From assembly GCF_038025025.1 (NCBI RefSeq), contig NW_027117340.1:1798001-1862000 (forward strand): DNA of 64,000 bases, written 5' to 3'. Under the pieces are notes generated by a model. The model did not search any database and was not told the origin of the DNA. It was given only the letters and a program-made list of their open reading frames with translations. Shown here in pieces: positions 1,076-52,785 of the stretch. Every line of letters starts with the position of its first letter. The stretch's first letter is position 1. A program made the translations under genes and the position numbers. This stretch comes from Phyllosticta citribraziliensis. Its lineage: Eukaryota.

Positions 1076-3951
1076 GGTTATAACGGGAATGGGTCCATTG
1101 CACGGTTCAACGAAGTCGAAAGGTGACTAAAATGACGTTTGAGCGGCTCTTCCCCAGCGCTGATGGTCGGAGAGGTCAAACGGCCGCGCGAAGTGCTTGT
1201 GATGAGAGGTGTTGCGATTGGTGTTGAGTGGTGGTCGAAGTTGATGTCATCGGTCCCCATCCCGCGGGGAATCTCCCTTTTTGCTCATGGCGGGGCGATC
1301 TGCCTCGGTTCGGCCCAACTGCCTGTCTGACCTCTCCAAACAACAACCTCAGACTGCTACATTCACCCATCCTCAGTCTACGTACATAATTGGCACCATC
1401 AAGCCACGTCGAACCTCCGCTTGATTCCTGTTCGTTCTTCGTCCCCGGTCCATTACCTTGCTATCAGCGGCTGCGTTCGCCCCCGCGGGAAGGTTGGAAC
1501 AGCGGGGGAAGCATAAATATCGATTGGATATTGATACATCGAGCAGACACGACTTTCGCCGCAACACAAGCCTCAGCTTACACCCAATTTGAAAGACTTT
1601 ATATTTCTTCGGAAATCCCGAGACTGCGAATGTTTTCCGCCTCATCGAACCTTTTGACCTGAATGCGCAACAAACATTACCTTCGATACACCTGCAGTAT
1701 ATTATTCACTTGCGCCCAGGATGCAATCTTCAAGCTCAATGTTTGAGATGAGTACGTAGCTACTCCTTTAGAACAATAACATTGCGCCACATTTTCTCTA
1801 CAACATATCTCAAACTCTACGCGGCGCTAAGCTTCAACAAGCCAAAAACGTGCCTCGGCTCTGCTTGTAGCCTTGAGTTGGGAAGCACGGCCTCAGAATT
1901 GCATGCAAACGTGGAATTGAGGCTGATGGCAAAAGTCGTGGCACCCAAAATCCAGCTGGGGCTTATGGATACTCCTCAGTACTCTGGCGTACTGTAGCTT
2001 GAATGCTCCCTGTCTTCGCTCCACCTGGTGACCTGCCTTTTATCTCGTGTGCACTATCAATAAGACTTGAATAGTGCACGGCTGGTGCTTTCTCGACGAC
2101 AAATCCCAGCGACCCGGAACCTTGTTACGCCAGGAACACCAATCGAAATGCCCGCGCGATTTATCGCATATGCTCAGTCGGGATTTCTCCAGTTCACTTC
2201 TACAGCAATGGCTTCGTTCACTAATCGCCAAGCTGGCCGTTGGCCAAGTCAGATGGATTAGCTTTGAACGTCTATCTTGTCTACGGTGGCTATAGGTCTT
2301 ATTATTGAGGGTCCGTGCTCTTCTGCATTGGGAGTGGACTGCGAGTGGCACCTTCGTGGCGCCTGTAGAACAACACTTCCGCGGTACGTGCTCTTTTTAC
2401 GTACCTATCTTTCTCTACACATGCACTTTAGATATTAGCCCCAATCCCTCTCCACCAACTCTCTTTCCCTTGCTCCTCAATCGTCCGTCTCCGTTGTAGC
2501 TCCAAACTTTAGCTGACCTCCAAAAATACCATTACCACAGTCTTTTGACTACTCGCCAGTCGCAGTTTCCACGGTTCATGGGTTGTTGACTGTCCGTACT
2601 AAAATGCTGATGCCCATACTGCTTAGGTCAATCCCCATGCGACTTGGGCCGGTAAGTTGCGCCCTCCAACGCTCCAATTGATCGATTGACAGCACCTACA
2701 CCAGCCAACCGCAGGACAGTTTTTTTAGTCCCGCTCCGAAGATGAGTGTCACTTGCAGCGACTCTGAATAACGCAAGGAGAAGCAGGGATTGCAAACCAA
2801 AAAACACACTCGGATCCTGCTGGACAGTGTCAGTGTAATGCTATGGTTGGTTGGGGCGCGGCAAAATAACCACCAAACTACGCGCTGCAGTTGGCCATTG
2901 GGACATGCCTTCGAAGGTCGTGCTGCATGGGTGCGATGTCGACGAACCGTCGAGTCCGAGTTGATTCCCCTGCAAGCACTGACACATGAAGGAAAAAGTC
3001 ATGGCACAAACCAAGGTGCCTTTGCCCCCTACTGTTGTCCTTCGGAGATGCCCGAAGTCTCACGAGCACTGTGCTGATCTGGCGAAGATTGAATGCTTTT
3101 TGCCTATCGTCTGATGAAGCATACGAACACCTCTTGCCCTCTTCGCTATTTGCTGGACGTACCGCAGCTTTTGCTACCAATCTCTGCTCCTTGTTCTTCG
3201 ATCGACACCAAAGCTTGGACATCTATCAGCCACAAGATGCAGCTTGCTTCCTCCTTCTCGAAGACATGCTGCGATCCTTCATCGAAATACTTTCTTTCGA
3301 TCAACCAGTCACACATTCTCTCCCAGCGTTCAGAACCTTGTTCACCCCCTCGATAGGCTGACTGTCGTACTCGGCAGCCTCAGCCATAATCGTACAAATT
3401 TGGCCATTGTCGTAAACATCGGGCAGATATGTTCAAAACCCAATTTCGAGGCCACGCAGTCAGTGCAATTCCTCGCGGCTTGACCATCCGGGCCTCACCG
3501 ACGCACATAGTCCTGTGGTGTTCCACTGCAACGCTCATCTTCTTCGCGTCCCAAATTTGAGCTAGCGTCCCGACTCTGCAGCTTTGTGGCGAACGACCGC
3601 AGAGAGTTGTGCAAAGCAATTGGACATGATTTTGTGCGTTGAGCGAAATGAACGCTCCCCGGACGCAATCCTGAACGCAATCGTACTGCGGAGAGACGGC
3701 CTACGGAAGTATCTGTCCGCGCCATTTCCCCCAGGTCTCTGCTTCCTCTCAACCTTTTTTCTCTCTCTACAGACTCGGACTTTGTGATTCAATGGCTAAA
3801 GCTCTAATTGTTACTACCTGACCGCAGGCGTGCATGGATGGCAGACCTTGACCTGTCACCGAGTATTCACTCAACGAAGTACAAATAAGGGCCTCTCTGT
3901 TCCCCACTCTGACTTTTCTTCACCAACGGTACTGGCAGATTCGGCAACAAC

Positions 3952-4637
3952 ATGGGGAACCGATTGTATATTGGGCTCGCGTCTTTTTTCCTCCTCTTTT
4001 GCCTCATCCAAGGTACGCTCTTGGCGATCTCCCCTACTTAGCACTGCTGACGGACTACATAGGAATGCCCCTAGATCCAAGATCTCCCCTTGAACGAGCT
4101 GTTCTAGAAAAAAGGCAACAAAACTTGTGCCCTGACGACGCACACCCCGCCGCCAAGCATTACCACACATCGTACTGCGCGAAGGATGCCGGCAGCATAT
4201 ACAAAACGAAAAGAGCAGAATGCATCGAGAACAACAGAAAAGTGCGCCTTTACTGCGGGGTGCCCAATAGCAGGGCCGAAGTGTTCCAAGACATTCCTTG
4301 CGACGAAAATGAGTTCTGCAAGGACGACGATGGACGCAATTGCTTGGAGGAGGACCACCAACATATGGCGGCGTGCGTGGTCGACTTCATCCCGAACAAC
4401 ATCGATCCCTTACACCGCTGCTATATTACGCAGCACATTGAGATTGCGACGGGAGCCGTGCTGCTACACGCCCACACTTCTGGCACGCATGCCAACTGGA
4501 AGGACCAACACAGCGGAGTTGCTCACCCAGATGTCAGCTACTTTGATGAGCAGTTGTATGGTCCAACTTACGTTGATCTGCGTGTTGTGTCACCTTGTTT
4601 GACCACGGTATACTACTCGCTCTTCAAGGGAATATGA
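3952..4637 (+). CDS. Secreted cysteine-rich effector-like protein with Kex2 pro-domain (FOLD/SIX6-like Cys spacing), 211 aa
   Basis: Exon 3952-4012 encodes signal peptide MGNRLYIGLASFFLLFCLIQG. Intron 4013-4062 (GTACGC..GCTGAC..TAG). Exon 4063-4637 encodes the pro-region ending LEKR, then a mature part with 10 Cys. Confidence 0.85.
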
Positions 4638-6381
4638 GCTTGTTTGCTGCGTTGTTCATCAATGATTAGGCAGTTACTGCGAATTTGAATTTAGATTTTG
4701 CTACTGTTTCCTGGGGAATGCGTGACGATGCACTGTGGTCGTTCTGTCTGGTCAACTGGTCTACAAAAGTCTTTGCGCAGGTGACTCGCGTAGCAACTTT
4801 GGGGCCCGGACTTGGGGACCCGAAAAGGAAGCCGGAAGGAGCTTTCTTCCGCTACCTCAATTTCTCTAGGAAAGATAGGGACATGATGAAAGCTAGGCGC
4901 GAAAAACTGCATGAGCTGCGTACTCGACAGTAGTTTCGCTCGGACCACAACATCGCGCTAAGCTGGTCCTAAATGCAATCCACAAATCGGGATTTAGCAG
5001 TCAGACCAAGCCTATAACTAAGCTTTCGTGTTTTCATTAATGTAATACGAGCAGTTGTGGTGCCGTCTATGTAGTAGAGCATCTTAGCGGAAGTAAAGTG
5101 CCGACATCACAGGCTCGGTTTCGCTTTCGCGCATCTACTCGTCGGCTAAGAAGAATCAGCCGCAGAACCAAGCGTGATACCACTGTGAGTGTATTTGGAA
5201 GACGAATGGACAAGCTATTAGATTTATGCCACGGTCCGGCCCAAGCTTTGCAACCTGCTCTTATTTGATTGTCGTTCTGGATGCAGGGGTTTTCCTTGGG
5301 ACAAAACGGATATACCCATCGCATGACGCTACCCGCAGAGCGCCTTTTTGGTCGATAACGACTAAACCTTTCTTCACTTTACCCGATTGTTTAACCACCC
5401 AAACACCATAACTATGTGCCCGGTAAATCTGCAGCACACAAAGTCCGACCATGATGGCACGCCATCGACGACAGTCGTCGCTCAAATCTCGCGCCAGGGA
5501 TAACGGTCAAATGCATCGTTACCATATCTTTCAGCAGCATTTTCAACGTCAAAAAATACTCCTCTTGAATCTACAAGGGGCAATGAGACAAAACCCCCCA
5601 CTTTGTGCAATACTAACACACGCTCGCGGGAAATTCTGGCTCTTCACTCCAGATCGTCGTGAATTATAAGGGTGGAGAGGAGGGGAAAGCTGGTTTGCGA
5701 GGAGTGGACGGTAGATAAACGGATCAGAGGAGGTGAGTGCTGCCGGCTTTCAAAAATTCGTCTTATAGTCATGCAAATTTCCAATGGTCACAGGGGCCTT
5801 GAAGAACGCGCCACGATATTCGCGGAAACACCGCCTTCTATCCTTTCCGTATCTGCTTACCCGGTCTGCTCGCTGTCTCTTCGTTTCGCTTTGTTGGTCT
5901 GAATTTGTTTGCCGCAAGAGCTTGATCGCATCACTGGCGAGGGGACTTGTGGACAGATTGGTAGCAAGCCAACCATGTCGATGGAGTGGTATAAATCCAC
6001 CTGGCTGCTCTCCCCGGACAGCCCTCGCATGCTGGCGCTGACTGCCTGAGCAAAAAGTAGGCGATTCAACTGCCACTCGTTCCTCCAAGATTCTGCTCGT
6101 TTCCAAGCCAGGCTCGGATTTGATTCATCTGCCGTGGTCTACTAGCTCTTTTTCGTATCTGTGTGCATGTAACGGAAATGCACAAGTGTAGATTTGCGTC
6201 TCTGCGAGGTTGCGTCCTTAGGCTTGCATGTTTCGATCCGCCGCCGACTGTGCACTGAAGCCAGGCAGTCTGGCGGACTTTCCAGTCCTGTCTCGTCAAT
6301 TCTCTTTGTCGCTTTCCGCTCGCACACAAACAACTTCGTCTTCCATTTCGTTCCGCGTAAGCACTGGAGCCTTCGCCAACT

Positions 6382-6992
6382 ATGGCGTCCAACAGCGCTC
6401 AGCTCAATGGCGACAGCGCGGCCAATGGACCTGACCAGGAATATCCTCATGGATTGCAGCAGAGGTAGCTCCGCCATTGCCTTTGAAATCTTCTTACGCT
6501 GACAACAAAAGTGATGCCGAAACCACGGATGGAGGTTTCCAACAGACCAACCTCGACGCGTCGCAGAACACACAGCAGGGGTACCTAGGCCTTGACCCAC
6601 AGCACATTCACAAGCTGACAATCCTCGGAAGCAATAACGTCGAGCCTGGCGCCGGCACCTCCCATGCTTCTTCCATGCCGCACGACATGTTCCAGCACCA
6701 CCTCAGGAGCCTTATCGATCTGCAGACGGAGCTCAACTCCCAGCTCTTCGATCTGCGGCTTGTCTTCGACGCCCACAGCTTCCCTCTTTCGGACGCTGAT
6801 CTCGACGGCCACGCCGGTTTCTTTTCCTATCGAATGCCGTACAACGACCCCTGGCGCATCCGTCGCGGCCGTCGCCTTTGGTTTCGCCGCGTACACACCG
6901 GTCAAGAGATCGTGGTGCTTGGCCCATACTCGAGATTGCAAGTGGAGATAGAGGTTCGCATGCAGCTGACCACGAGGTTCGGTGACTCCTGA
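6382..6992 (+). CDS. Uncharacterised protein, tandem family member A (~187 aa)
   Basis: Exon 6382-6464, phase-2 intron 6465-6511 (GTAGCT..GCTGAC..AAG), exon 6512-6992. Motifs LRSLIDL, LSDADL..AGFFSY, VVLGPYSRLQV. Confidence 0.75.
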
Positions 6993-7929
6993 GTGGGCTG
7001 TCGCCGCGGACTTCGGGCCCAGTAGGAGTGGTTCCATGTCCAATTCGCAGGACGCAGCGCCTCAACCAACGAAAGTGCGCCTGCTTCGAACGCATCGCGG
7101 ACTGGATCATCAACCGATAAACTTGTAGGACGGTCGTGGTAGGCACACCAAAATCTGGCTCGTTCAAGAGGTCGCTAACGAATCCTCCTTCTTTAGGCCA
7201 TGAATGCTCTTAATCCTCGCTCCTACTTCAAACTCAACACCAGATCGCTCATAGTCCTTTGATGGCCTCTTGGACATGTGTAATACTCGTAACGACATTG
7301 GAATCCGGCAAAATCGTGCCACTTTTCCTTCAAGTCAGTTTTCTTTCGAGCAATAGTGGCATTAAGGAAACTCCTCTGCCTTCGTAGCTTCAAAAGGCTA
7401 CCAGAAAAACATGGAAGGTACTATGGAAGCTTTGCGGCCAACAATCAAAATTCAGGGGCAAATTTGAGTCCCATGGACGATGGTCGAAATCGACAGCGAA
7501 CGTGTTCAAAATGCAGCAGGGGCAGCTAAAACTCGTAAAGACTTTGTTTCATAGCCTTCGTGTCTGTTGCGTTACCTTTGGCACTGCGGACGCGAAGTGA
7601 GTGTCCTTTTCGCTCCCGGTGCACGACCACTCTCTGCTGTCTTCTCCCCACACACACCCATTTCGAGCACTGCACTTTTTCCTGCTAGCACTGTCCCGAT
7701 CGAGAGACTGCTAGAATCCTTTTGCCTTGATACTCCCTCAATTCCGGCCCCGTCTTTATGAAACCGTTTGATCATTCTTGAAGCGTAGTAGCCACGGCGT
7801 TTCAATTGACTTAAAGCATCACTTTCGAGAAGAGCAGAGGTTGTTACAGGAAAACGAGATCTATCCATCTGCTAATGGAGTCGGCGTGTCGTCGCCAATG
7901 CTGACCGCAACGTCGACCGAGAGCGAGGA

Positions 7930-8207
7930 TTGCCTGAGCGCTCTACCGATGACAACAATACGCAGAGCCAGGCCGATATACTCATCGCCTGCGATTCCAC
8001 GAACATTTGGACCTGGGAACAGCATCTCATGCGCACACCCTTCTTCCAAGTGGGAATCATTTCATGGCTGCAGAATCTGCGACGCATATTCAGCGCTGGC
8101 TCCCCTTCCTCAGCTCTGATGGAGCGAACAAAGTCTATACCCCGTACACGAGATAGGACGCTGCCAATGAGGTCTGCCTTCTGTTTTACTTGTTTCCAAA
8201 ATTATGA
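7930..8207 (+). pseudogene. Probable decayed fifth member of the tandem family
   Basis: EQHLMRTPFF (to 8046) in one frame, then VYTPYTR*DAANEV (8133-8174, TAG at 8154) in another frame. The spacing is similar to GF..GPY in member B. Confidence 0.35.
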
Positions 8208-8664
8208 AGATTGTTTTGTGATAGGTCATTCTATGTCCGGACTACTTCCATTCTGGTGGATTTTCCTTCTTTGCTGTAAAATAATGTCACTCGAACAAAA
8301 TGTCGAAACTTTCTGATTGCTTTTTGAGCCTTGCCCAGGTAAAATTAGGTCGCCGTTGCGGATGACCATGGGTGCTATAATCGGAGGTGCTGCACAAGAC
8401 ATATATGGGCAGATTGTTGATGACGAGAAACCTATGGCTGTTGCGAGTGTCACATTTCGCCGACGCTTTCCTTTGTTGCGCCTGCAGGAGCAGATGAGTC
8501 CGCGAGGGACGCACGCCTTCCTGTTTGCTCCAGCGCACACTGCGCCAACACCCAGAAAATATTTGCCAGTAAATATTTGCTCTACCAACAGAACTCCCCA
8601 AACAACTCTTTGGTTTGATACCCGCGCTCTCATTGCAATTGATCACCTTGTCGGCACCAGAAAA

Positions 8665-9226
8665 ATGTCAGACCACGCGCCAAGTTCCGAACAGCAGCGG
8701 CCCAAGTAAGTGCTTTGCGCTTCAACTTTTCCACTGGCTAACCGCCTTCGAATTCAGTGAGCCTACGGTCAACGACCACCAGGAACCTCAATATTCAACC
8801 TCCTCCTCCTCCATGATCGGCTCCTCTGTTGGTCATCTTCCACCACAAAACGAGTCGACCTCGGAGGCTAGCGACAATACCGGTGTTGGCGAAACCCTGG
8901 AGCAGCCTCGCGCGGAGAACAATCAACGGGGTCTGAGAGCTCGTGTCAGGACCTTGATCGATCTCTCAAGAGACGTGATGTTGGAGTTGGTGGGCATGCT
9001 CATAATGCTCAATATCGGCCCTCAGCTTGCCATTTCGGACGAGCAGTTGGTGAGAGCAGGATTCACACCAATGACGACTTCACCAAACGCTGAAGACGTT
9101 CTCTACATGCGCCACCAAGGACACCAGGGTCGTGGATCGGCAGCAGACGCCAGCGTGAGCGGCCCTTATACGAGAGAGGAGGCGGTCTCAGAAACGAGGG
9201 CTTCGCTGCTTTGGCACTTCAGGTAA
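8665..9226 (+). CDS. Uncharacterised protein, tandem family member B (~169 aa)
   Basis: Exon 8665-8705, phase-2 intron 8706-8757 (GTAAGT..GCTAAC..CAG), exon 8758-9226. Motifs VRTLIDL, ISDEQLVRAGF, VSGPYTREEA. Possible last intron 9223-9274. Confidence 0.78.
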
Positions 9227-10060
9227 GACCCAGTACTCTGCTCGTCAATCTGTGCATGGCTGACTCGCAATCAGATGATCTCTTCGATGGGGACTGAAAC
9301 GCTCCTCCGCAAGCGAGGCAAATGGAGCTGCTCATCCTCACCTCCGGGATTTTTGATTCCTCCATGAGACTCCCAGGGAAACTCAATAGCCAATATCATG
9401 TCCTTGGTCAATCACATTCGGAAGCATGGCTGCCAAGGAGGATACTGCCTGCGAAAGCACAAGAGAGATCAAGGGAGATGTGGCCCGGCTGCACCATGCG
9501 GCGCCAACGAGACCGCAAGCCGAGAGAATGATTGAACATAACAACGAGAAATGCTCGCATCCGATCGCCAAGAAAACGGGCCAGTATCAACCAAAATGGA
9601 ACAGACAACTTGCATCATCCCGAACTCCATCGCACAGAAGAATCAATCAGTGGAAGGGGGGGTCGGGCAGAGCTTTTGGAATGAGGACTGGGAACAAATA
9701 GTCTTTCATGAATGCGAGAATGACTTCTTCTGCGAAATTTAACACTGTCTTGTGTCATTGTCTCGCGGGTGATTCTGTGCGTTTTCAGGACCTTTCATTT
9801 CGCGCTTTGCATGAGCCGCCCATGAGCAGATTCACTAGTACCTCGCTCTACAAGTATTTCTTCCTTCTCAACCTACTTCCCAAATGCAACCCCAACAGCC
9901 TCCAGTCGCGCCCTTCAAGCCTTTCTCTTTCTCAGGTCCACGCGACCCCCTCTTCACGGCGAGGAAAGCCTCATCGTAGCTTACGCTGACCCTTCGTCAA
10001 AGGCCGATGTGAGTGGCGGTCTGTCTGGCAACACTGGCTTTGTTCAGAAGGGCGTCTGCG

Positions 10061-10762
10061 ATGATCTCTTCCTTCAATATGGGCTCTGGCGAGTTTGAAA
10101 GCTCACAGTAAGTCACAAAAGTCTTCATGCACATAGAATATTTGATAACAGCCATTTCCTGAACTTTAAGTGATGACCACTCTGCCACGCAACTGACGGT
10201 CAACAACATTGCAATCAACATTGTCGCCTACGGCTCTTTGCCGAGCCAGCAGGTCGTCACGCTCGACCTCAAGCTCAGCACTGCGACATGCGCTGACGAT
10301 TTTCCCGCCATCCTCCGCGAAATCTTGCGCTCTGGACTCCCTCTCACGGCGACGATCCATTTCTTCAGGGAAAGCGCCGAGGGGCACATCGCCAGACAGG
10401 CCATTGCGTCGGGCGGAACCGCCCCAACGGTTCGACTATTGACGCACGATGAGCTTATACGCTGCTATCCGTCCCTCGGTTTATCGAGATCGGGCTTCCA
10501 TCTTCTGGAAGCGGCTGAAGGCATTCGCACGTCGTTCTTGAGGGTTGAAGAAGCTCGCCAGCCAGACAGTGGGAGCAGGTGGATTGTTAGCGGCCCGTGG
10601 ACCTTCAGAGAAGCCTGCACTGTGGTTGAGCGAGAGGGCCGCAGTCTGCCTGACCCGCGTGTGCCAGAGGAGGATGGGCGGGAGGAGGAACAGTTCGAGG
10701 GAGTTGGGTCGCCGCCTCCAGAAGAGGCCCCAGCGTCGATGCAGCAGCCGGCGCGGTATTGA
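10061..10762 (+). CDS. Uncharacterised protein, tandem family member C (~212 aa)
   Basis: Exon 10061-10107, phase-2 intron 10108-10170 (GTAAGT..AAG), exon 10171-10762. Motifs LTHDEL..RSGF, IVSGPWTFREA. The start could extend to ATG 9884 via a putative intron 9976-10047. Confidence 0.7.
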
Positions 10763-11334
10763 CTGCCAACTCGAAGCTCTGCCTGTCTTCAAGATTCCGA
10801 TAATGTGAGCAGGACTGCGCAAGTACCAGGGGAGAGTGTGAAGGAGACGAGGGTTCTGGGTGAAATGCGGGCATGGCTGGTTTCTTTCTGCGAACAATCT
10901 AGCTCTGTACGCTGCGTCAATCGACTGCATCTTTCAGCCAATAGGGCAAGATCGTCCAGATTTTGAATTCGTTTGTCTTGGATCTGGCGAGGTTTGACGG
11001 TCCTTGTGGAAGTCAGGAGCTTCTTCGTATATTCGTGGGTTGGTAAATGTACTGCGTCGCCATTGCTCGAGAATCGACTTTTCCATTCGATGGCCCAATT
11101 TGGCGACTGCCGGATTTGTTGTGTTTGTTTGCCTGCGAGGTGTTAATCCGAAGTGTGCCTGCGCGCCTTCCTCCTCGACCACCGCCCACGCGCACACGCA
11201 GGCCCAAAACATTCGCGTCTTGCACCTCCGCAACCTCCACAACCTCTACAACCTCCACGGTCCACAATCTTCGCGACTTGACCACCTCCGTCTCGTTTTC
11301 GTCACCCCGAACAACAGACCTTCTCCTGTCAATC

Positions 11335-12125
11335 ATGTGCGCCGCAAAGAACAGAAAGCGCAATAACAAAGGCAAGAAAGCGTAAGTTTCTCCGGTCCCG
11401 GGACGAAAAGAACCACTTGCTGACTGCAAATTAACTCAGTTCGAACGCTCCGGTGGCCGTCGCCTCTGAGCCTGGCAACGCATCCAGCCAACCACTCTCA
11501 GCTGAAGCCGACAACGCCAGCCCAGCCGCGGAGGCCGAAGACCGGCAAGCCCTCGCCGACGAAGTTCACCGCTCACAGCAGGAGCTCCTCGGCCGACTCC
11601 GTGCCGAGAATGAAAAGGCGGACGAGATCCTCCGCGGGGCTCAAGCGATGCAGGCAGAGATGGGTGCCCTCAGAGATAAATTGAGAATGTCGAAGTCCTC
11701 AGAGGCGCACGGCGACGCCAGCAGCCAGCCAGAGCGCTGCTCCTGCGCCATCCAGTGGCCGAACGCAGAACGCCAGCAGTTGGCGTGGCTCCATATCGTG
11801 GATCGGGAATTGGGCCATAGATTCAATCCCGGGGAGCACGGCTTCTTTCGCTACCTGCCCGCTCCAGAAGGCCAGAACGACGACGAGAACGAAGTGTTCT
11901 ACCGCCACGAGAACACCGCCTGCGAGATTTGCGGAGGCGCCAGGTGCAAGGTCAGCGGACCCTGGAGCAGAGTGGAAGCGTTCTCCTTGGTGTCCAGGAA
12001 GATCTTAGGGGAGTTGATGACGGGCGAAATGTAAGCGAATTACGCCTGTGAAGGCCTGCTTCCTTCATTCTTTTGGAATGGAAACTGACGAAGCTCTTAC
12101 CAGGATCCCGATAATGCCGACGTGA
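11335..12125 (+). CDS. Uncharacterised protein, tandem family member D (213-219 aa), with basic N-terminus and coiled-coil-like segment
   Basis: Exon 11335-11381, phase-2 intron 11382-11439 (GTAAGT..GCTGAC..CAG), exon 11440-12030, putative intron 12031-12103, exon 12104-12125 (stop at 12034 if unspliced). Motifs IVDREL..EHGFFRY, KVSGPWSRVEA. Confidence 0.8.
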
Positions 12126-12544
12126 GGCCCGGAGGAGGCTCAGCCGTCTTTTCTGCTCTAGGAACGAATTACAAGTCCGGCGACAAACTATCTGGCACAG
12201 GCATGCAGTGGGAGTAAGTCGGATTAGACGACAACGCAGGACTTTGGCGGGATTTTGCGCTTGGGATGAACAACGCCGGCGGGCTTTGGCAAGACTAGAC
12301 GTAGAGCTTCGGACGTATGTGCCAGGCTAGCATGTAGCAATCAGTCCAAAACACCTCAACGAGTCCTCTCTTTCGCGGTGACCTGGGTGCTCACCATAAT
12401 CAAGTTTTGTCAGTGATGTTCCTTCTGTTTGGGCGCCCTCGGACCACATTCGTGGCTTTTGACACCCCACCATCCGCAGGCAAGAACCTCTACGTTGCTG
12501 ACCCATCACACGCGGAGCACGGATCGCCTCGGTCTGTAAAGTTG

Positions 12545-12918
12545 GAACTGGCGCGCCAATCAGCCAACGAGCGCAAATGGGACTGTGCGCCTAGGGACAT
12601 GAGCGTAGTCCCATTCTGTCCAACTTCCAACATGGCAGGTCGAAAATCTCGAATTGCCGGCCAATCAATGGGCGAGCGCGAAGGGGACTGTGCACCAAGG
12701 GACATGAGCGTAGTCCCAATTTGTCAACTTCCAACATGGCGTTCAAAAAATCTCGAATTGCCGGCCAATCAACAAACGAGCGCAAAGGGGACTGTGCGTC
12801 GAGGGCGAGCTAAAGGCGAGCGCCTGTTCCCAATCGGTCAACTTCCAACATGGCGTTCAAAAATCTCGAATTGCGGGCCAATAGGCAGACGAGCGCAAAG
12901 AGGACTGTGCGCCAAGGG
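12545..12918. repeat. Imperfect tandem repeat, ~3.5 copies of a 104-113 bp unit
   Basis: Units start at 12545, 12651, 12755 and 12868. Shared blocks: GAATTGCCGGCCAATC, CGAGCGCAAAGGGGACTGTGC, CAACTTCCAACATGGC, AAAATCTC. Confidence 0.95.
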
Positions 12919-15900
12919 TCCAGGAGAGGGTGGTGTCGGTGGAGCAGCTGTACCGCCGGCTCGGAAACGACGGAGGCTCGTGGATCAGCTACTTCCGCCT
13001 GTTGCAGAGCGAAGCAGGAAGATAGCGAGACTTGGGTCGTCTTTGCCCTTGGTGATTTTCTTTCCTTGCACTGGCCTGAAAGTGCGCTGACTTTCTCAAT
13101 CGGATTCATGACGACGGATTGACGGCGGTGACAGCCTGAGGCAAAGTGCCCTTCAACACTTCATGTTTACTTCGGCAACGCAAGACCGTCCAGCTGCGAT
13201 GCATTCCCCCAAGGTCGGCGTGCACTCCGGCTGATAACGAACCAAAGAAAGCAAGGTTGACGTGACGGAAAAGATTCTTCAAGACCTATCGCCTGTGATC
13301 TTGAGAGCCCGAATGATTTGGGTTTTCGTGCTGGATGGAGGCGAACATCCTGAATTGTAGGTCTGAGACCCTGTGGGAAATGCTTCGTGCCTTGAAAGAC
13401 TGAAGGAAAGATCGAAAAAGGAAAGCGGGAGCATCCAAACAACGCCGATGCACCAAGGAACTACAGCGATTTCACGATGACTTGTTGATAAATGCCCCCG
13501 AGAAGGAGCGAATGTCTGCCGCGATCTTTGTGTCAACTTTCATGGAAGCAAAGGCAAGAGCATCAAGCTTACCATGTCAACCACTACGCCAAACACCCCT
13601 TCGGCCATCGAGCATCTCCGTCTTACATCCGATGGCCAACACGGGAGAACGGCAAACCGTCAAAAAGTCGACGAAGGCGACGTCAAAAGAAGCCGCGATA
13701 GTCCGACACGGTTCCAGGCGGGCGCAGAGACCTACGGACCCACACCTGTGCAGAATAGCCCTGCCCTACGCGATGTCTCATCCCACGCTCTCTCGGTGCA
13801 ATTCTTCGCGAGCGAATGGGGTGTTTGGTTTCGACTCCACTTGTTCCCCACCCCCACTCCCCCACGGATTACTTACATGCTGGCTCATACATCTTCGTAC
13901 GGGTGCAGATGTAGGCGTACATCCTGCTGGAGCCATGTGACCGCTAGCGTGGCACGGCGGTACCAAAGAGCCAGAACGGGGCAATCTGATCACCCGGTCT
14001 GCCGGGCTGATGAGCCGGAACAATGGTTGGCTGGCTGGAGGCGTGTGGGGATGATAGTGGAGAGCTTGTGAGTGGAGTCGCAAAAAGAGCGAGGAGAGCC
14101 AGACGCGCCATTCGCGCCAGGAGATACGCAAAGACGAGCGAAGGATGGGAAGTGGGTGCCGAAGCTGTCAGGTGGAGACGATGCCAAAGTTAAACGGAGG
14201 GGTGTGCTGCAAGTGGTTTGTGTGCTACAGTCAGAACTGGGTTGCTTTGCAGGTAGCTTTGAGCAACAATAGACTCTGAGAGGCCCCAAACTATGCGCGC
14301 GGAGTGTGTTGATGTCTGGAGCATTCCAGACAAGCAAGCCCATGCCTGAACCGAAGGGCCCAAGCATTCGTTCAGTAGGGATCTGTTGGGTCCTGTCCCG
14401 TTGCTTTAATTCGTTAATAAGCGTCCGTAAAAGGCAACTGGTCCAGTGACAGAAGCTAGGAATAGAAAATGTTTGGGTTCCAGGTTCCCTCCTTGACTGG
14501 CCGAGTGTCGACGCAATTTTGACCATTAGAGCCACGCTTGGAAACACGTTCATATTACGTGAAGGGATGGATCCATGGTCGTTGATCGAGCAGAGGATTC
14601 GCGGGCATCGACAACTGCCAACCACGACGGTCGGTGCCGCGTGTTGGACGACATGGACGGCTGCCGAGAAGAGAAAGCGCAACAGACCGAACTTGGCTAG
14701 GTCGACTGATGGCGAACTGGTGTCGTGGCTACAAGTGACAATCAGTCAGCCAGCAAGGCAGGGTATCACCTGCATCAGGCTAGCCGTGTTCGCGGCATCG
14801 GGAGGGATTGTGGGGTAAGCGGGCGGTAAGTCGATTGGGTTGGGTTGTGCACTGAAACGGTGTCATCAAGAAACCCCCAGAGTTCCTCGCACCCGGCCAC
14901 TGGTCAGGCTAGCTTGGGTTCCCCGGAGGATTTTTTCCCTGATGCCAAAGTGCAGGACGTCAACATTGACGCGTCCTGGCTGGCCAGTTCAAAGGCTCGT
15001 TTTGGAACAGAGCTGCTGGAGCCCGATGGCCGATGAGCGGGACAAGAGGTAGGTAATGGTTGCATCAAGCAGATTCCAGAAACGGCGACGGCCAAAGCAT
15101 GGTGGGTTTGGCGCCAGTTTGCGGCTGAGATGAGTGTCCAGCGTCGTGGTGCACGGCATGAATCAAGAAGCAGGCTCGCGTGAGGGGTCGCGAGCGCTGA
15201 AGGATGTAGCAGAGCGAATCGGCAGCGGAGGCCGTGTGGAGAAGCAGAAAGCGACGGCGAGGGTGGTGAGTGGTGAGGGGGTGGAGTACATGGCCGTACA
15301 GCGCAGAAGTAGGGTGTAGAGGAGGTTGTGGTCGCGTCGTGGTTGAACGGGAGTCGGCTACGGATCCCTGTAGCCGAGCAGCCGTGCGTCACCGGCGTGG
15401 GGGTCTTCCTCAGGTCTCTCTCTCCCCCGCGTCGCCACAGACGACAAACCATCTGGCAAACTGAACCTCCATGCACACCGCGCACCGCCTCATCCTCTGC
15501 TCCCGCTCCTCCCGCTCCCGCCGTCTTCTGATGCCTCGTCCCATCGTTGATGGATGAGCTGCATCGAGGTCTCATGACAGTCTCTGCCGTCACTTCTCGC
15601 ATCACACTCGCCCGGGCCATTCATCGGTTGAGAATCTCCGCCATGACAAAGAGAAGGCAGGGAGGAAATCAGATGATGGCTACCATCTTCGGTCCCAGCC
15701 AAGAGCTGCTCCACCACGTCTCTACTGGCCCCCCACGCTCCAGTCTCCATCCGCGAGAACCCCAGCTGCCGGGATTCCGCAACTTGTCAACCATCTCCTC
15801 GAGCCTGTTCCAAAGCCATCCCTCCCGTCTCAATACCTACTGCTACACCGCCAAGAACTAGCAGTGGCTCATCTATTCTTGTGCCTCGCCGCTCGAAACG

Positions 15901-16262
15901 CTTCAAAACACTTGGTCTCTTGTCAGGTAGCGGCTCCGCTTTGGTGATACCACGGTGACCTTAGCTCCCGAGAAGACGGCCTATCTTCTCCGGCTGTACC
16001 TTGATTCCAGACTGAGCTCCACTCCCAGACTGTCTGTTGTTCACGCTGACCCCCACGCTGCCTCCGCTCTAGGCAATCATTTAAGAAGGGCTTAGTGCTG
16101 TCTTCCCTGTCCCTGGTACCTTTGTTACAGCCTTCGAGTTCCTTTAAAGCACAACATCTATCCTCGTTTTGTGCCCATAGTTTTCTTTTTTCATTAACCA
16201 CCCTTCGGCACATGTGGCAGCTGCTTGAAGGATAGCTTTCGAACATCTTCAATACAAACTAC

Positions 16263-39574: not shown

Positions 39575-42500
39575 ATGCCTCGTCCACGCGGTACCCTCCT
39601 CCTCGCTGCTACCTGCGTCTCACCACGCTAACCCCTTGCTTTGCCAGTCCTGTCGTTCATGTCGCAATGGGGTGGCTCCCCAAGGTCCAAAACCCCCGCC
39701 ATCGACCCTCCTTCCTCCCCAAAGCACTCGTCGACCCCCGACAAGTCGTCGCCCATTACGCCGCCCTCGGCCTCGTCCCACAACCTCGACAACTTCCACT
39801 CGTCGTCGCCCACGGCCGCCCAGCGCTCTCGCTCCGACTCGCGCCCTTCTTCGCGCCCCGTTTCCATGGTCCAATCCCACCAGCCCCCCGTCATGGACGT
39901 CCAGCAGGACACCCTGCCCGAGCTGCAGCGCATCTTCACCTACCTCAACTCTCACTCCAATAAACTCTATCAGGAGGGCTATTTTCTCAAGTTGCATGAC
40001 TTGGATGGACGTGAGTACAAGTTCGGTCCGAATCGGGAAGGTGATCTGACTGCTCCAGGCGGTCGGCCCAGTCCGGATCGGAATTGGACCGAGGTGTTTG
40101 CCCAGCTCGTAGGTACGGTGCTCTCGGTTTGGGACGCCCAGAAGCTCGACGAGGCGGGGACGGACGGTGAGGTTGTGCCCAGCTTCATAAACTTGGCCGA
40201 TGCCTCGATCAAAATGGTATACACTCCCGCGCCAGCTCTCGTCCTTGTCGCTAACTGTCCAGATTGAATCCCTGCCCATGAGTGGCCAGGGCGGCCAGAA
40301 CTTGACCAACGTCTTGAGCGTATCCACGGCCGGAAACAACCGCTACTTGTTTCACTTCAATTCGCTCAACTCTCTGACCCAGTGGACCGCTGGCATCAGG
40401 CTCGCCATGTTTGAACACGCTTCCTTGCAGGAGGCCTACACGGGCTCTCTGATTGCCGCCAAAGGCAAGTTCTTGAACAACATCCGCGCCATCATGGAAA
40501 AGACCAGGTTCAGGCAAGAAGACTGGGCGAGAGTGCGTTTTGGGGCCGGGACTCCGTGGCGGCGGTGTTGGTGCGTCATTACACCACCGGACGAAAAGGA
40601 CATCCAAAAGGCCAACAAGTCGGCCAAAAAATCCGTCTATGACCGCTCCCAGCCCATTCTCAAAGGCGACGTCAAGTTCTACGACACGAGAAAGGTAACA
40701 AAAAAGACGCGGCCCATTGCCACTCTCAAGGATGCCTATTCCGCATACGCCATATACCCGCAATCAAAACCCCTCATAGATCAGTCAACCTTGGTCAAGC
40801 TCGAGGGTCGCATCACGATACACTCCAAGCCCGAGTCCACCACCGAAGGCTTCGTTTTTGTCATGCCCGAAGTGCACCCAGCCGTGTCTGGATTTGAAAT
40901 GATGCTCCGTTTTCTGTTCCCCGTGTACGATGTGTTTGCCATTTACGGCAGGCCCTCACGCCTAATTGCCGACCCGCTCGACACCCGCTCCTTGATGTTT
41001 GCGATGCCCACGTCGCGGCGCTACGGCTATTTGGATATTTTGGACGTGGCCAGCCTGCTTCACACTCAGGGCAGCGGCAATTGGACAGAGCGCGAGTGGA
41101 GAAAACAGTTGAAAGACCTCACGGTCAAACGGATGACGTCCGGTCCTCCTGATCGCCTGAGGCAGCGCAGCCATACTACCAGCCGCGTGAGCCTGCCGCC
41201 TTCGCGGACGCAATCGATCAAGTTCAATGACCAGCAGTCGGCACGCTCCTCTCCTGGGTCTCGCAACTCTTCACCTCCACGGCCCGGTGACATTGGCTTC
41301 CCGGCTCCAAGACGCGCCGAAACTGCTTCGCCAACCGCCATGTTGGGCCACAATCGCTCAGTGTCGGAAGCAGGGCCCATGCGTCGGCAGGCCAACGGTG
41401 ACGACTCACCACCCCGTCCGCCAGCTCATCGCCACCTCCTCAATGGCCTGAATCAAGACAGTGACGGCTACTCGACTCCCTCTGACGAGCAACTTCAAAA
41501 TTCCTCCGGCAGCTCGCCAACCAGTCTGCCTCACGTCGGGGCAACCGGCACGTCTGGGCCGCCCCCAACCGCTGTGCAGCCCCCGCATTTCACTCATGCG
41601 CCTGGTCATCGTCCTCGTAATCGCCCGCAAGACTCCCAAGACTTGCGGCGTGCCCAGTCTTACATTGATGAGGCGACGCTGCAAGAGATGCAGCAAGCTC
41701 ACTCCCACCCACTGCCGGCTGAGGCCGCTACCATGGGGGCTGCAGCAGCCCTGGCCCAGCGCGATGGAATTGGCAGGCCAGGTGGCGAGGGCGACCGCGC
41801 CCAAGCCATGCATTCTTACCGCAGATCGGTTGATGAGAGTCGCCAGCAATGGGCTGAGCAGCCGCAGGATCGCCTGCCGACCATTCCTGCGTCGCCGTAT
41901 GTTCCACAAGGCACACCTCAGACGGCAACGAGTGCAACGTTTTCGCCGACTGGACCTCCCGTGCCCGAGCACAGAGAGTTTCCCAGCTACTTTCCCCCTG
42001 ATGCCTTAGCTGCGCAAACTGACCACGGGCACATTGTTGAGAACCCTCCTGCCCAGGGGGTTGTTGCTCGCAAGCCACTTCCAGGTCGGTCACCCCCTCA
42101 TTCGGCGGACGACTCCGCCGCCCCTCGTCCTCCCTCACGCTCAAGTGTTGGCAGTTTCCAAAACGACCTAATCAACCCCGACCTGATTCTTGGTCATCTG
42201 GATGCTCAGGAAGAATTTGAGCGCGAGAAGGAGCAGATTGAGGCCGAGGAGGCCGCTCTTGACAACGAGTCGACGGGCACCCCCGACTATGCGAGCATCA
42301 AGAGTGTGAGCACGGAAAAGTCGGTCCGCGTCACTGAGCGCGTCGAACGGCCTCGGACTGGCAGGCTCAAACTGGTGGGCAATGTTCCGAAGCCCGAAGC
42401 CCCAGAAGCAATCACGGTTGGCGACGCTCAGTACTCTGGCGAGGCCAAGACGGAAGAGCAGCTTAATCTCCCCAGGATTGACTTTGGCCCTACGTACGAT

Positions 42501-43874
42501 CTGACCAAGGGTGACGCAAGGGCTGTCCACGCGAATGTCGAAGCCGAGGACACGGTTGAAGGGGAGGAGAGATCAGCGTCTCGCATGAGTCTTGGGTTTG
42601 ATGCGCTCTCGATTCGACCTGGAAGCTCTGGCAACCCGATAGAAAACGGGAACATTGGGAGGGCCAGTCCTGGCGTCGAGTCTCACCGTCGGGCTAATTC
42701 GAGATCCCCGCAAGAAATCAACGGCAATCGACGGAGCCTATGGCAGCCCCAACCGGCCGGACCTATCCGCACTCCGAGCCCGAGCCACCGCATGAGCTTC
42801 ACCCCAGAGGAATGGGTCAATCACCGCGCTTCCCTTGCCGCCGCGCCGCAGCCAGTGTCTGGTCCTGCTGGGGTGGCCCATGGACGACACAAGTCAGCCA
42901 ACAACCTCACTCCACCAATCAGTCGCAATGCCTCTGGCGACTGGTCGCAGATTCTCCCGCACTACCAGCGCACACCCTCGGGAGAGCGGGATCCCCGTCG
43001 GGATTCTTTTGCAACGCGCCGCGATTCCCGCGCTGCGTCCATGTTTCTGAGCGCCGCCGAAGCCGATAGGATTCCGCGACCCAACTCTCGCAACGCGGCT
43101 TCGATGCTTCTCAGCGCCGGATCGGCTGGTCTCATCAATGCTGATGCCTCGCAGCTCACAGCGCGCGAACAGGAGCATGTCGCTCGGTTGACCGGCACGC
43201 CTCTCATTAGCATGAGGAAGAACTCGGCAGCGAAAAAGGAGCCCGAGTCGTTTGGACTTGTCAGCGCCATCGCTGCCCGCCAAAAAGAAAAGGAGAATAT
43301 CAAGCAGGGTTCGCGCTCCGCCCTCGTCCACCAGGCCATTCAAGCTCGCCAGTTGCACGCGCACGCGCAGGCCGAAGCCGAGAATCGCCGGAAAATGGAT
43401 GAGGTGCAACGACGCGCTGAGATGCAGATGCAAAAGGAGCAAGCGGCGCTTTTCCAACAGCAGATGCAAATGCAGCAGCAGATGCAACAGGCGGCGAACC
43501 GCAACTCGGTCATGAGCTTGGGGAACATGTCGCAAATGTCCATGCCCATGCAGCCGCAAGGGATGCAGAGCATGCCGAACTTGTCGATGATGGGGACGCC
43601 GCAGCCTCAGCAACACTCGCCCATGAACGGCTACTCGCCGGGCACTCCATTCGGCATGGGCCAGCCGCAAAACGGAGGTGGCGGCTACTTTGCGCCACAG
43701 CACATGGCGCCGCCGCCGACAGGGCCCTACATGAATGGCTTGGGCAGCATGACGAGCCTCAACAGCGGTGGACCCGTCGGCCAGCACGGCGGCATGGGCG
43801 GCGGTGGCTTTACGCCACTGCCGTATGGCGCCAGTTGGGACAGGGACCAGGCACAGCGGATGGGGAGACGCTAG
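39575..43874 (+). CDS. Skg3/Caf120-like PH-domain protein
   Basis: MPRPR|VLSFMSQW... then NKLYQEGYFLKLHDLD, FAQLVGTVLSVWDA, QWTAGIRLAMFEHASLQEAYTGSLIA, DWARVRFGAGTPWRRCWCVI, YAIYPQSKPLIDQSTLVKLEG. Long disordered, Gln-rich tail. Introns 39591-39647, 40011-40058, 40217-40263. Confidence 0.9.
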
Positions 43875-51700: not shown

Positions 51701-52785
51701 GAGGCGTGGATCCTAGGGTTGACAAGAGACAGGTTGAGATTCCCATTGAGAACTCGCAACCTGAATTGCCCGAGCCGAAGAAAGGAGGACGAGCTCCCAA
51801 ACGCCAGCCAAAAAAGTTTCACATGCCAGATGGTGTCATGGACGGCTTCATCAAGGCATCGACGATGAATGGCGGCGATGTGGATGAGCTCGGCAACATC
51901 CGCCTGCAGGCCAGAAAAAAGAAGCCCGCATATGTCGACCCTCCCGAGGACCGAGTCCCAGCGGAACAGGTCCTTCTCAGCCAGCGGGAAGAAAGGGACC
52001 TTGAACGACAGTACCAAAACGTGCACGACGTGGATGGTGATTTGGAAATTCCGCCATTGGCTCTGAATGCCCATCCTGCGTCTCAGCGTCTCTTGACGAC
52101 CACGAAATATGTCCCAAGCAGCCGGGCTAGTCGGGAATTTGTCAAGACGATGAATCTCGTGCACGAGGCGGACCGTTTGCGCATTGAAGCTCTTAGAAGG
52201 AATTATCACGCATCCAATCTTGACGGCTGGAAGTCGGCGGACGAAGACAATGACGTTGAGGTGGTCGCTACTGAAGACCACGAAGCCCCGATAAGGACCA
52301 TTACGCCGGCGCGGCCCCGAAACCGCATCTCAGACATGGTCATGGAGGCAGACGAGAGCAGTCCGCCGCCAACAGATCCGCGCATGCGCATCGGGACTCA
52401 AGGCATCAACCTCGGGTCCGACGACACGGATGGATTTGATGATCCAGAAGACGAGCAATTAGACTCGGAGCTACGAAGCTTTGTTGTAGACGACAACGAG
52501 GAGGTGCAGATGTTTAGCTCAAGCCTCCCCGGACGCTCGCGGCAGCCAGTCAAGCTTTTTTCAGATTCGCAAGATTACGACGACAACCCGAGGCACAACG
52601 ACAATGAAGAAGAGGACGACGATGATTTGCCAGACATTGGCACGTTGCTCAAGACGCCCAGGCAAAGGCTCGCCAAGGGTCCGACAACGGCGAAAATCGC
52701 TAGAAGCAGCTCGACTAGCGAGGATGACGTTGTGAGGCAGCGGCAGAGAAGGCGCCTGGTGGTGGAGGATAGCGAAACTGAATGA
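48743..52785 (+). CDS. MPH1: FANCM-family DEAH DNA helicase
   Basis: Motifs RDYQYNIV, ALPTGLGKTFIAA, VFDEAHRATG, LALTATPG, VATSIGEEGLDIGEVD, LQRMGRTGRKR. Exon 48743-49761 joins in frame via intron 49762-49808. Confidence 0.95.

Follow-up and report, generated by a model that had tools for sequence, protein, structure and literature searches.

Four small genes lie in a row on the plus strand of a 64,000-nucleotide (nt) stretch of the Phyllosticta citribraziliensis genome (NCBI RefSeq assembly GCF_038025025.1, contig NW_027117340.1, positions 1,798,001 to 1,862,000; hereafter the window, numbered from its first letter). We asked whether these genes, here called A, B, C and D, descend from one gene and what kind of family they would form. 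Our reading, to which we give a probability of roughly 0.55, is that A-D are real protein-coding genes, old tandem duplicates of one ancestor, and confined to Phyllosticta as far as our searches reach. In this scenario, one ancestral gene would have been duplicated in tandem, giving rise to four deeply diverged copies. An initial annotation made from the letters of the window had reported four co-oriented small genes carrying a set of short peptide strings, and every one of these strings was found at its place on the plus strand, in the open reading frames (ORFs) of A, B, C and D. The ORFs, gene models and C-terminal modules (lengths in amino acids, aa) are as follows.

6435-6992, plus strand: stop-to-stop ORF of A, from DNA reading
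8573-9226, plus strand: stop-to-stop ORF of B, from DNA reading
10163-10762, plus strand: stop-to-stop ORF of C, from DNA reading
11435-12034, plus strand: stop-to-stop ORF of D, from DNA reading
6382-6464 and 6512-6992, plus strand: coding sequence of gene A, 187 aa; phase-2 intron 6465-6511 (47 nt); spliced product letter-identical to annotated protein P0008
8665-8705 and 8758-9226, plus strand: coding sequence of gene B, 169 aa; phase-2 intron 8706-8757 (52 nt); annotated proteins P0009 and P0010, both reading QQRPNEPTVN, confirm the first splice
10061-10107 and 10171-10762, plus strand: proposed coding sequence of gene C, 212 aa; phase-2 intron 10108-10170 (63 nt); from DNA reading, with putative start and intron
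11335-11381 and 11440-12034, plus strand: coding sequence of gene D, 213 aa; phase-2 intron 11382-11439 (58 nt); same length and architecture as ortholog P0005
6702-6989, plus strand: C-terminal module of A, with the LRSLIDL helix, AGFF, WFRR, VVLGPYSRLQV and a terminal helix; from alignments, missed by the leave-one-out profile (E = 1)
8945-9223, plus strand: C-terminal module of B, with the VRTLIDL helix, AGFT, LYMR, SVSGPYTREEA and a terminal helix; from an AlphaFold model and leave-one-out recovery (E = 6.1e-5)
10430-10636, plus strand: core of the C module, with SGFH, SFLR and IVSGPWTFREA; from leave-one-out recovery (E = 5.9e-3)
11732-12031, plus strand: C-terminal module of D, with ERCSC, HGFF, VFYR, CEICGG, KVSGPWSRVEA and a terminal helix; from leave-one-out recovery (E = 5.6e-5)

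Evidence for a family of coding genes

All four models share one build, a first exon of 41-83 nt followed by a single phase-2 intron of 47-63 nt, and this common exon-intron build is modest further support for common descent. The first splice of the A, B and D models matches annotated orthologs; in P0005, the ortholog of D, a basic MCAAKNRKRN... first exon is joined to the remaining protein as in our D model, and the spliced form of A proposed at the outset is letter for letter the annotated one. The start and intron of C come from DNA reading. The N-terminal parts of A-D are variable and largely low-complexity. Each copy would accordingly be laid out as a short first exon, a phase-2 intron, a variable N-terminal part and a C-terminal module of about 55-100 residues.

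Using the six-frame translation of the window, with the mean of 200 order-2 Markov simulations as the expectation, we found that the pattern V.GP[YW][ST]..[EQ][AV] occurs four times, all in A-D, against 0.005 expected and at most one per simulation. This strict pattern was written from the same four ORFs, so there is some circularity in its count; this affects the looser patterns less, with five occurrences of V.GP[YW][ST] against 0.19 expected, and eight of the bare GP[YW][ST] against 4.0, half of the eight lying inside the A-D ORFs. All four copies of the motif are co-oriented, within 5.1 kilobases (kb) of each other and near the C-terminus. Synonymous codons vary at the motif (proline uses all four, valine three), and we found no DNA repeat linking A-D beyond chance pairs of 20-22 nt. 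The spread of proline codons and the lack of a DNA repeat indicate that the motif is conserved at the protein level. When MAFFT aligned ten sequences of the four families, full or partial, without anchoring, the G-F, V, G and P columns came out invariant, with the G-F sitting 30-35 residues upstream of the motif. These results bear out the first impression of genes that look unrelated as DNA yet align at their C-termini. The block proposed upstream of the motif survives in part: its G-F is common to all four families, but its SD..L piece aligns in A and B only. No fifth family member was found within the 64-kb window, where the best non-member for the module profiles is an off-frame ORF at 52295-52459 (plus strand) inside a helicase gene, containing ASTSGPTTR.

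To ask whether the similarity reaches beyond the motif, we built a hidden Markov model (HMM) from the C-terminal segments of three families at a time and searched it against 1337 six-frame ORFs of the window. In this leave-one-family-out test B (19.6 bits, E = 6.1e-5, 58 profile columns), D (19.7 bits, E = 5.6e-5, 51 columns) and C (13.2 bits, E = 5.9e-3) each ranked top after the training ORFs. Recovery spans 36-58 profile columns, that is, wider than the motif. In neither control, 40 shuffled ORF sets and 54,817 shuffled or reversed ORFs, did any score match those of B, C or D. Pairwise hhalign comparisons, all in one register, gave P values of 0.0005 for B-D, 0.0008 for C-D, 0.0015 for B-C, 0.013 for A-D, 0.025 for A-B and 0.2 for A-C. 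BLASTP aligned A with B at 26% over 100 columns (E = 0.04) and C with D over 22 residues (E = 3e-4). Out of 2000 shuffles, those reaching the observed Smith-Waterman score numbered 5 for C-D, 18 for A-B, 27 for B-D and 108 for A-D. HMMs of the whole-length families gave weak cross-matches among the window ORFs, with E = 0.02 from B to D, 0.086 from C to D, 0.18 from D to B and 25 from A to B.

By these comparisons, homology beyond chance links B, C and D across some 50 residues. The profile comparison suggested in the initial annotation thus holds for these three, each recovered by the profile of the other families, and fails for A (E = 1). We consider that A very probably also belongs to the family, short of proof, because it has the motif at the same distance from the C-terminus, shares RSLIDL/RTLIDL with B, and has a Smith-Waterman match to B (score 48) that is collinear over 94 residues with the same spacing of RxLIDL, SD..L, GF and GPY. 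The LRSLIDL/VRTLIDL likeness of A and B, already pointed out at the outset, falls within this collinear match.

Base composition and cross-species comparison argue that the four ORFs are coding. The GC content at the three codon positions is 0.61/0.43/0.67 in A, 0.56/0.47/0.59 in B, 0.62/0.51/0.66 in C and 0.64/0.48/0.75 in D, resembling seven recognised genes of the window, whereas the spacers are flat. Between species the reading frames persist, in alignments that show 44-86% identity and contain 0-6 gap columns. Ortholog identity is 79-86% for the closest relative species and 44-68% for P. citriasiana or P. paracitricarpa. Against P. citrichinensis, A is 86% and B 85% identical, both without gaps; D is 79% (gapless), 53% and 53% identical to three species; and exon 2 of C matches the C part of the P. 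citriasiana protein P0012 at 44-45% over 173 aa with 3 gap positions. These identities of 44-86% indicate a family that is diverging fast between species, in agreement with the rapid diversification first proposed. The motif block is among the best-conserved parts of B, C and D. It is 80-100% identical in B (residues 185-213). Against P. citriasiana, ORF residues 125-144 of C, in the module core, are 75% identical (25-60% elsewhere), and residues 139-178 of D are 70-80% identical, with other D blocks at 25-75%, one coiled-coil block being at 75%. Identity in A is flat, at 75-100%.

Predicted fold of the module and extras of gene D

We predicted the structure of the last 100 residues of B (8924-9223) with AlphaFold, using the ten-sequence alignment, and obtained a model with a mean predicted local distance difference test score (pLDDT) of 72 and a predicted template modelling score of 0.52. 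Its elements are helices at 2-30, 39-44 and 84-99 and strands at 47-51, 59-65 and 77-82. The module is therefore predicted as a long helix, a short helix, three antiparallel strands and a terminal helix, one fold predicted to be common to all four modules. In the B model, strand 1 begins with G-F, strand 2 contains the aromatic-x-R, strand 3 closes with V-x-G-P-[YW] and the last helix starts with [ST]-x-x-E, which places the motif at the strand-to-helix turn between 77-82 and 84-99. A [ST]-x-x-E at the start of a helix is the pattern of an N-capping box. This position at the turn suggests that the motif is most likely a structural scaffold rather than catalytic, and the shared residues (G-F, aromatic-x-R, V-x-G-P-[YW] and [ST]-x-x-E) would mark the skeleton of the module. 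The proteins may act inside the cell as small adaptors for binding or oligomerisation; in this proposal it is the scaffold part that rests on data.

Among known systems, SPOR and GYF domains, raised as comparisons in the initial annotation, are also binding modules of small alpha/beta type in which a strand turns into a helix. The comparison found no support for A-D in sequence or in fold: the scanned sequences have no Pfam match to SPOR or GYF at E <= 1, and the fold searches gave no match, with both domains absent from the 50 best rows of either search. The COMM domain, an obligate dimer module of three strands and a helix, can be named as a near system. A homodimer prediction of the B module, run without controls and without the ten-sequence alignment, gave a score of 0.00 and no verdict.

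Gene D carries additional features, a basic N-terminus, a long helix and C-x-C ... C-x-x-C, alongside the shared module. An AlphaFold model of whole D with four orthologs contains a helix at 51-107, with a block-mean pLDDT of at least 91 over 51-90 and 77 over 91-100. The four cysteines are invariant in 4/4 orthologs; the alignment puts them in helix 1 and in the loop that precedes strand 3, and this placement suggests a family-specific metal clamp, which would make them a four-Cys metal site. The basic stretch, coiled-coil-like segment and CxC/CxxC that had been noted in D thus reappear in the model and in the orthologs. From its basic N-terminus D is probably nuclear, and it would combine nuclear location, a coiled coil and the four-Cys site. 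Reading the N-termini of A-D by eye, rather than with a predictor, we saw no hydrophobic signal-like stretch, and the proteins are probably intracellular, as first supposed from the lack of a signal peptide.

Transcripts, public gene models and alternative readings

Several results weigh against one family of expressed genes. In the leave-one-out test A scored 6.3 bits (E = 1) with the profile of B, C and D; it came eighth in the list, or fifth once the three training ORFs are set aside, and its score was reached by 22 of 40 shuffled ORF sets. The chance ORF at 52295-52459 reaches 10.6-15.6 bits with these profiles, so the margins of B, C and D are a few bits. The Smith-Waterman scores of B-C and A-C are not above shuffles (243 and 1180 of 2000). 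The confidence in the fold is moderate, with a usable model for the B module alone; the whole-D model is poor outside the coiled coil, with a pLDDT of 52 overall and about 40 in the module. Further points of this kind come from transcripts and from public gene models, and two alternative readings build on them.

No run recorded as RNA contains the stretch. Two runs, X1 and X2, guessed to be RNA and containing 0.41 and 0.28 of the sampled words, gave contigs that we compared with positions 5500-13500. X1 contigs cover 9820-13500, and X2 contigs cover 10121-11551 plus a short piece; A and B are uncovered, which is neutral as evidence. The X1 contig 9820-12327 runs gapless across the modelled introns of C and D, and the X2 contig 10121-11551 is also unspliced; the modelled mRNAs are therefore putative. 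The X1 contig ends at a joint that defines one further feature.

12327-12394, minus strand: 68-nt intron downstream of D; an X1 contig joins 12326 to 12395, and the ends CT..AC read GT..AG on the minus strand

At 12327-12394 the X1 depth is 1266 joined against 345 unjoined. The joint may mark a spliced antisense or non-coding RNA, and the dominant RNA near D may be antisense, possibly across C and D, with the limit that the contigs carry no strand information and drop rare forms. Downstream of D, an approximately 105-nt tandem repeat of four copies (83-61% identity to the first) occupies 12555-12942, inside an ORF (12338-13090) without a Pfam match; X1 contigs also run across this region.

These contigs support an alternative in which some of the ORFs, chiefly those of C and D in P. 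citribraziliensis, have ceased to yield proteins and the locus mainly gives spliced, probably non-coding RNA from the minus strand. Word-seeded protein searches, which returned no protein of this species for C or D, point the same way. However, the kind of the two runs is a guess, their contigs are strandless and poor in rare forms, the ORFs of C and D are intact with coding-like GC periodicity, their frame is conserved with P. citriasiana at 44-53% identity, and the minus-strand ORFs of the region are short. We therefore regard loss of expression as unlikely and keep to four coding genes.

Public annotations handle the locus inconsistently: the B motif is spliced out, B is joined to C, and neither C nor D is called. 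P0010, the public model of B in this species, equals B over its first 147 residues and then splices out 9157-9221, deleting the motif stretch SGPYTREEAVSETRASLLWHF, a further point against our reading. Since 9157-9221 is kept in frame in both P. citrichinensis and P. citriasiana, P0010 is probably wrong at its 3' end and this stretch probably not an intron. In P. citriasiana, P0012 (324 aa) fuses the C-terminal part of B to C. In P. citrichinensis, the C model P0013 follows the shared frame up to IHF and then the +1 frame of the window (16/22 identical, 73%, E = 7e-9), the switch corresponding to window positions 10370-10440, and it lacks the module. This switch is either a frameshift in P. 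citrichinensis or an artefact of annotation or modelling. As read from the loss of the module in P0013, the family shows birth-and-death behaviour, and it would evolve quickly in this manner.

The fused protein P0012 raises the alternative that a single gene comprises B and C and carries the module twice in tandem, making a three-gene array. In its favor, P0009 and P0013 of P. citrichinensis share a 28-residue stretch, RRASAMMAFFNANHGQPESSGESENSR, located after B and before C, and the stop codon of B overlaps a donor-like GTAAGA. Nevertheless, B ends at TAA, and the candidate acceptor that we checked by eye gives an immediate stop; the 835-nt spacer is poorly conserved at the protein level and flat in codon-position GC; and P0012 lacks the N-terminal half of B, suggesting a read-through model. 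We consider a joint B-C gene improbable, and four separate genes remain our reading.

A bolder extension of the four-gene reading is also conceivable, and we hold it to be a long shot. The module would be a new small alpha/beta fold born in or shortly before Phyllosticta. Its four copies would form a hetero-oligomeric, partly nuclear complex, to which D would contribute a coiled coil, a nuclear-targeting stretch and a zinc site, and a spliced antisense RNA, strongly expressed over C and D, would control the output of this complex. If true, the locus would offer a compact example from nature of how tandem duplication under sense-antisense control diversifies a young fold.

Distribution and genomic context

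We searched for relatives to find how far the family extends. A D profile run against 1.84 billion representative proteins gave three matches at E <= 0.001, all from Phyllosticta. Word-seeded searches with D, with A, B and C together, and with the ten-sequence module alignment (the last scoring the 8000 candidates that share most words) returned 3, 6 and 5 proteins, again all from Phyllosticta. Family assignment was equally spare. No Pfam-A family reaches its gathering cut-off in A-D, the best being HMUD2 at 12.3 bits (cut-off 25) and Snapin_Pallidin at 12.5 (cut-off 29.6); across the ten aligned members just Snapin_Pallidin (E = 0.021) and DUF7547 (E = 0.0025, one member) appear. The ten-sequence profile has 0 matches at E <= 10 among the sequences of the PDB, and the ESM Atlas contains P0005 letter for letter, yet with no usable look-alike and no model. 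The domain had been described as unassigned and the family as restricted to a lineage, and both descriptions agree with these searches.

A-D make up a new protein family, very small and of a well-known kind, the fast-evolving orphan family. They resemble the taxonomically restricted tandem families of filamentous fungi, having no relatives outside one genus, small size, few introns, disordered N-terminal parts, fast divergence between sister species and one member seemingly disrupted in one species. That kind is descriptive and predicts no mechanism, and A-D differ from it in that the copies keep a recognisable folded module. If confirmed, the family would be a small, tidy example of lineage-restricted genes persisting and diversifying, in which four copies kept one structural skeleton and nothing else, one gained a coiled coil and a metal site, and one appears broken in a sister species. 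No function follows from the finding, and it has no bearing on any long-standing open question.

The array had also been called typical of conflict loci, in which allorecognition, a spore killer with its antidote or toxin immunity would drive divergence by an arms race. A tandem array restricted to one genus, diverging fast between sister species and seemingly disrupted in one of them (P0013) would fit such a locus. Conflict systems are defined by HET, NACHT/NB-ARC, Spok kinase/nuclease-like or multi-pass membrane wtf domains. Neither A-D nor their orthologs have a Pfam match at E <= 1 to HET, NACHT, NLR, toxin or nuclease families, so the defining domains of HET/NLR incompatibility and of Spok- or wtf-type drivers were not found in them, and a by-eye reading of the same sequences found no long hydrophobic stretch. 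The recognisable genes of the window are housekeeping ones (NUDIX, DHDPS, complex I 49 kDa, Rpb3, ATP synthase gamma, topoisomerase I, a helicase, a ZIP transporter and GH3), and the 60 long window ORFs scanned with Pfam include no transposon family. Members are annotated in four species, and two members in one assembly lie on the same contig, with consecutive protein ids in 3/4 such pairs, which indicates that the array is stable and speaks against a presence/absence island. In the B model, moreover, the conserved residues look structural. A conflict locus is accordingly quite improbable, and of the original picture of an old, rapidly diversifying, lineage-restricted intracellular paralog family, paralogy, restriction and fast divergence are supported while the conflict part is not.

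Least credible is a chance or convergent motif in four unrelated orphans: similarity outside the motif is weak (hhalign probabilities of 0.3-32% across pairs), A fails the profile test and the motif was defined after the fact, but its four co-oriented copies against 0.005 expected, the profile recovery and upstream G-F beyond it and the common exon-intron build all speak for descent.

In the neighbourhood of the array, a region of about 15 kb (1100-16200), from the NUDIX gene to the DHDPS gene, is without a Pfam-recognisable gene, and the array lies inside it. A PH-like gene at 40191-43871 prompted us to consider a mating-type locus, which we rejected on finding no alpha-box or HMG family among 33 further ORFs scanned. 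From 16.2 kb onward, every scanned long ORF with a Pfam match is an ordinary housekeeping or metabolic gene. Upstream of A, a 261-codon open frame at 3852-4634 (plus strand), Cys-rich, protein-like in composition and without a Pfam match, may be another orphan gene.

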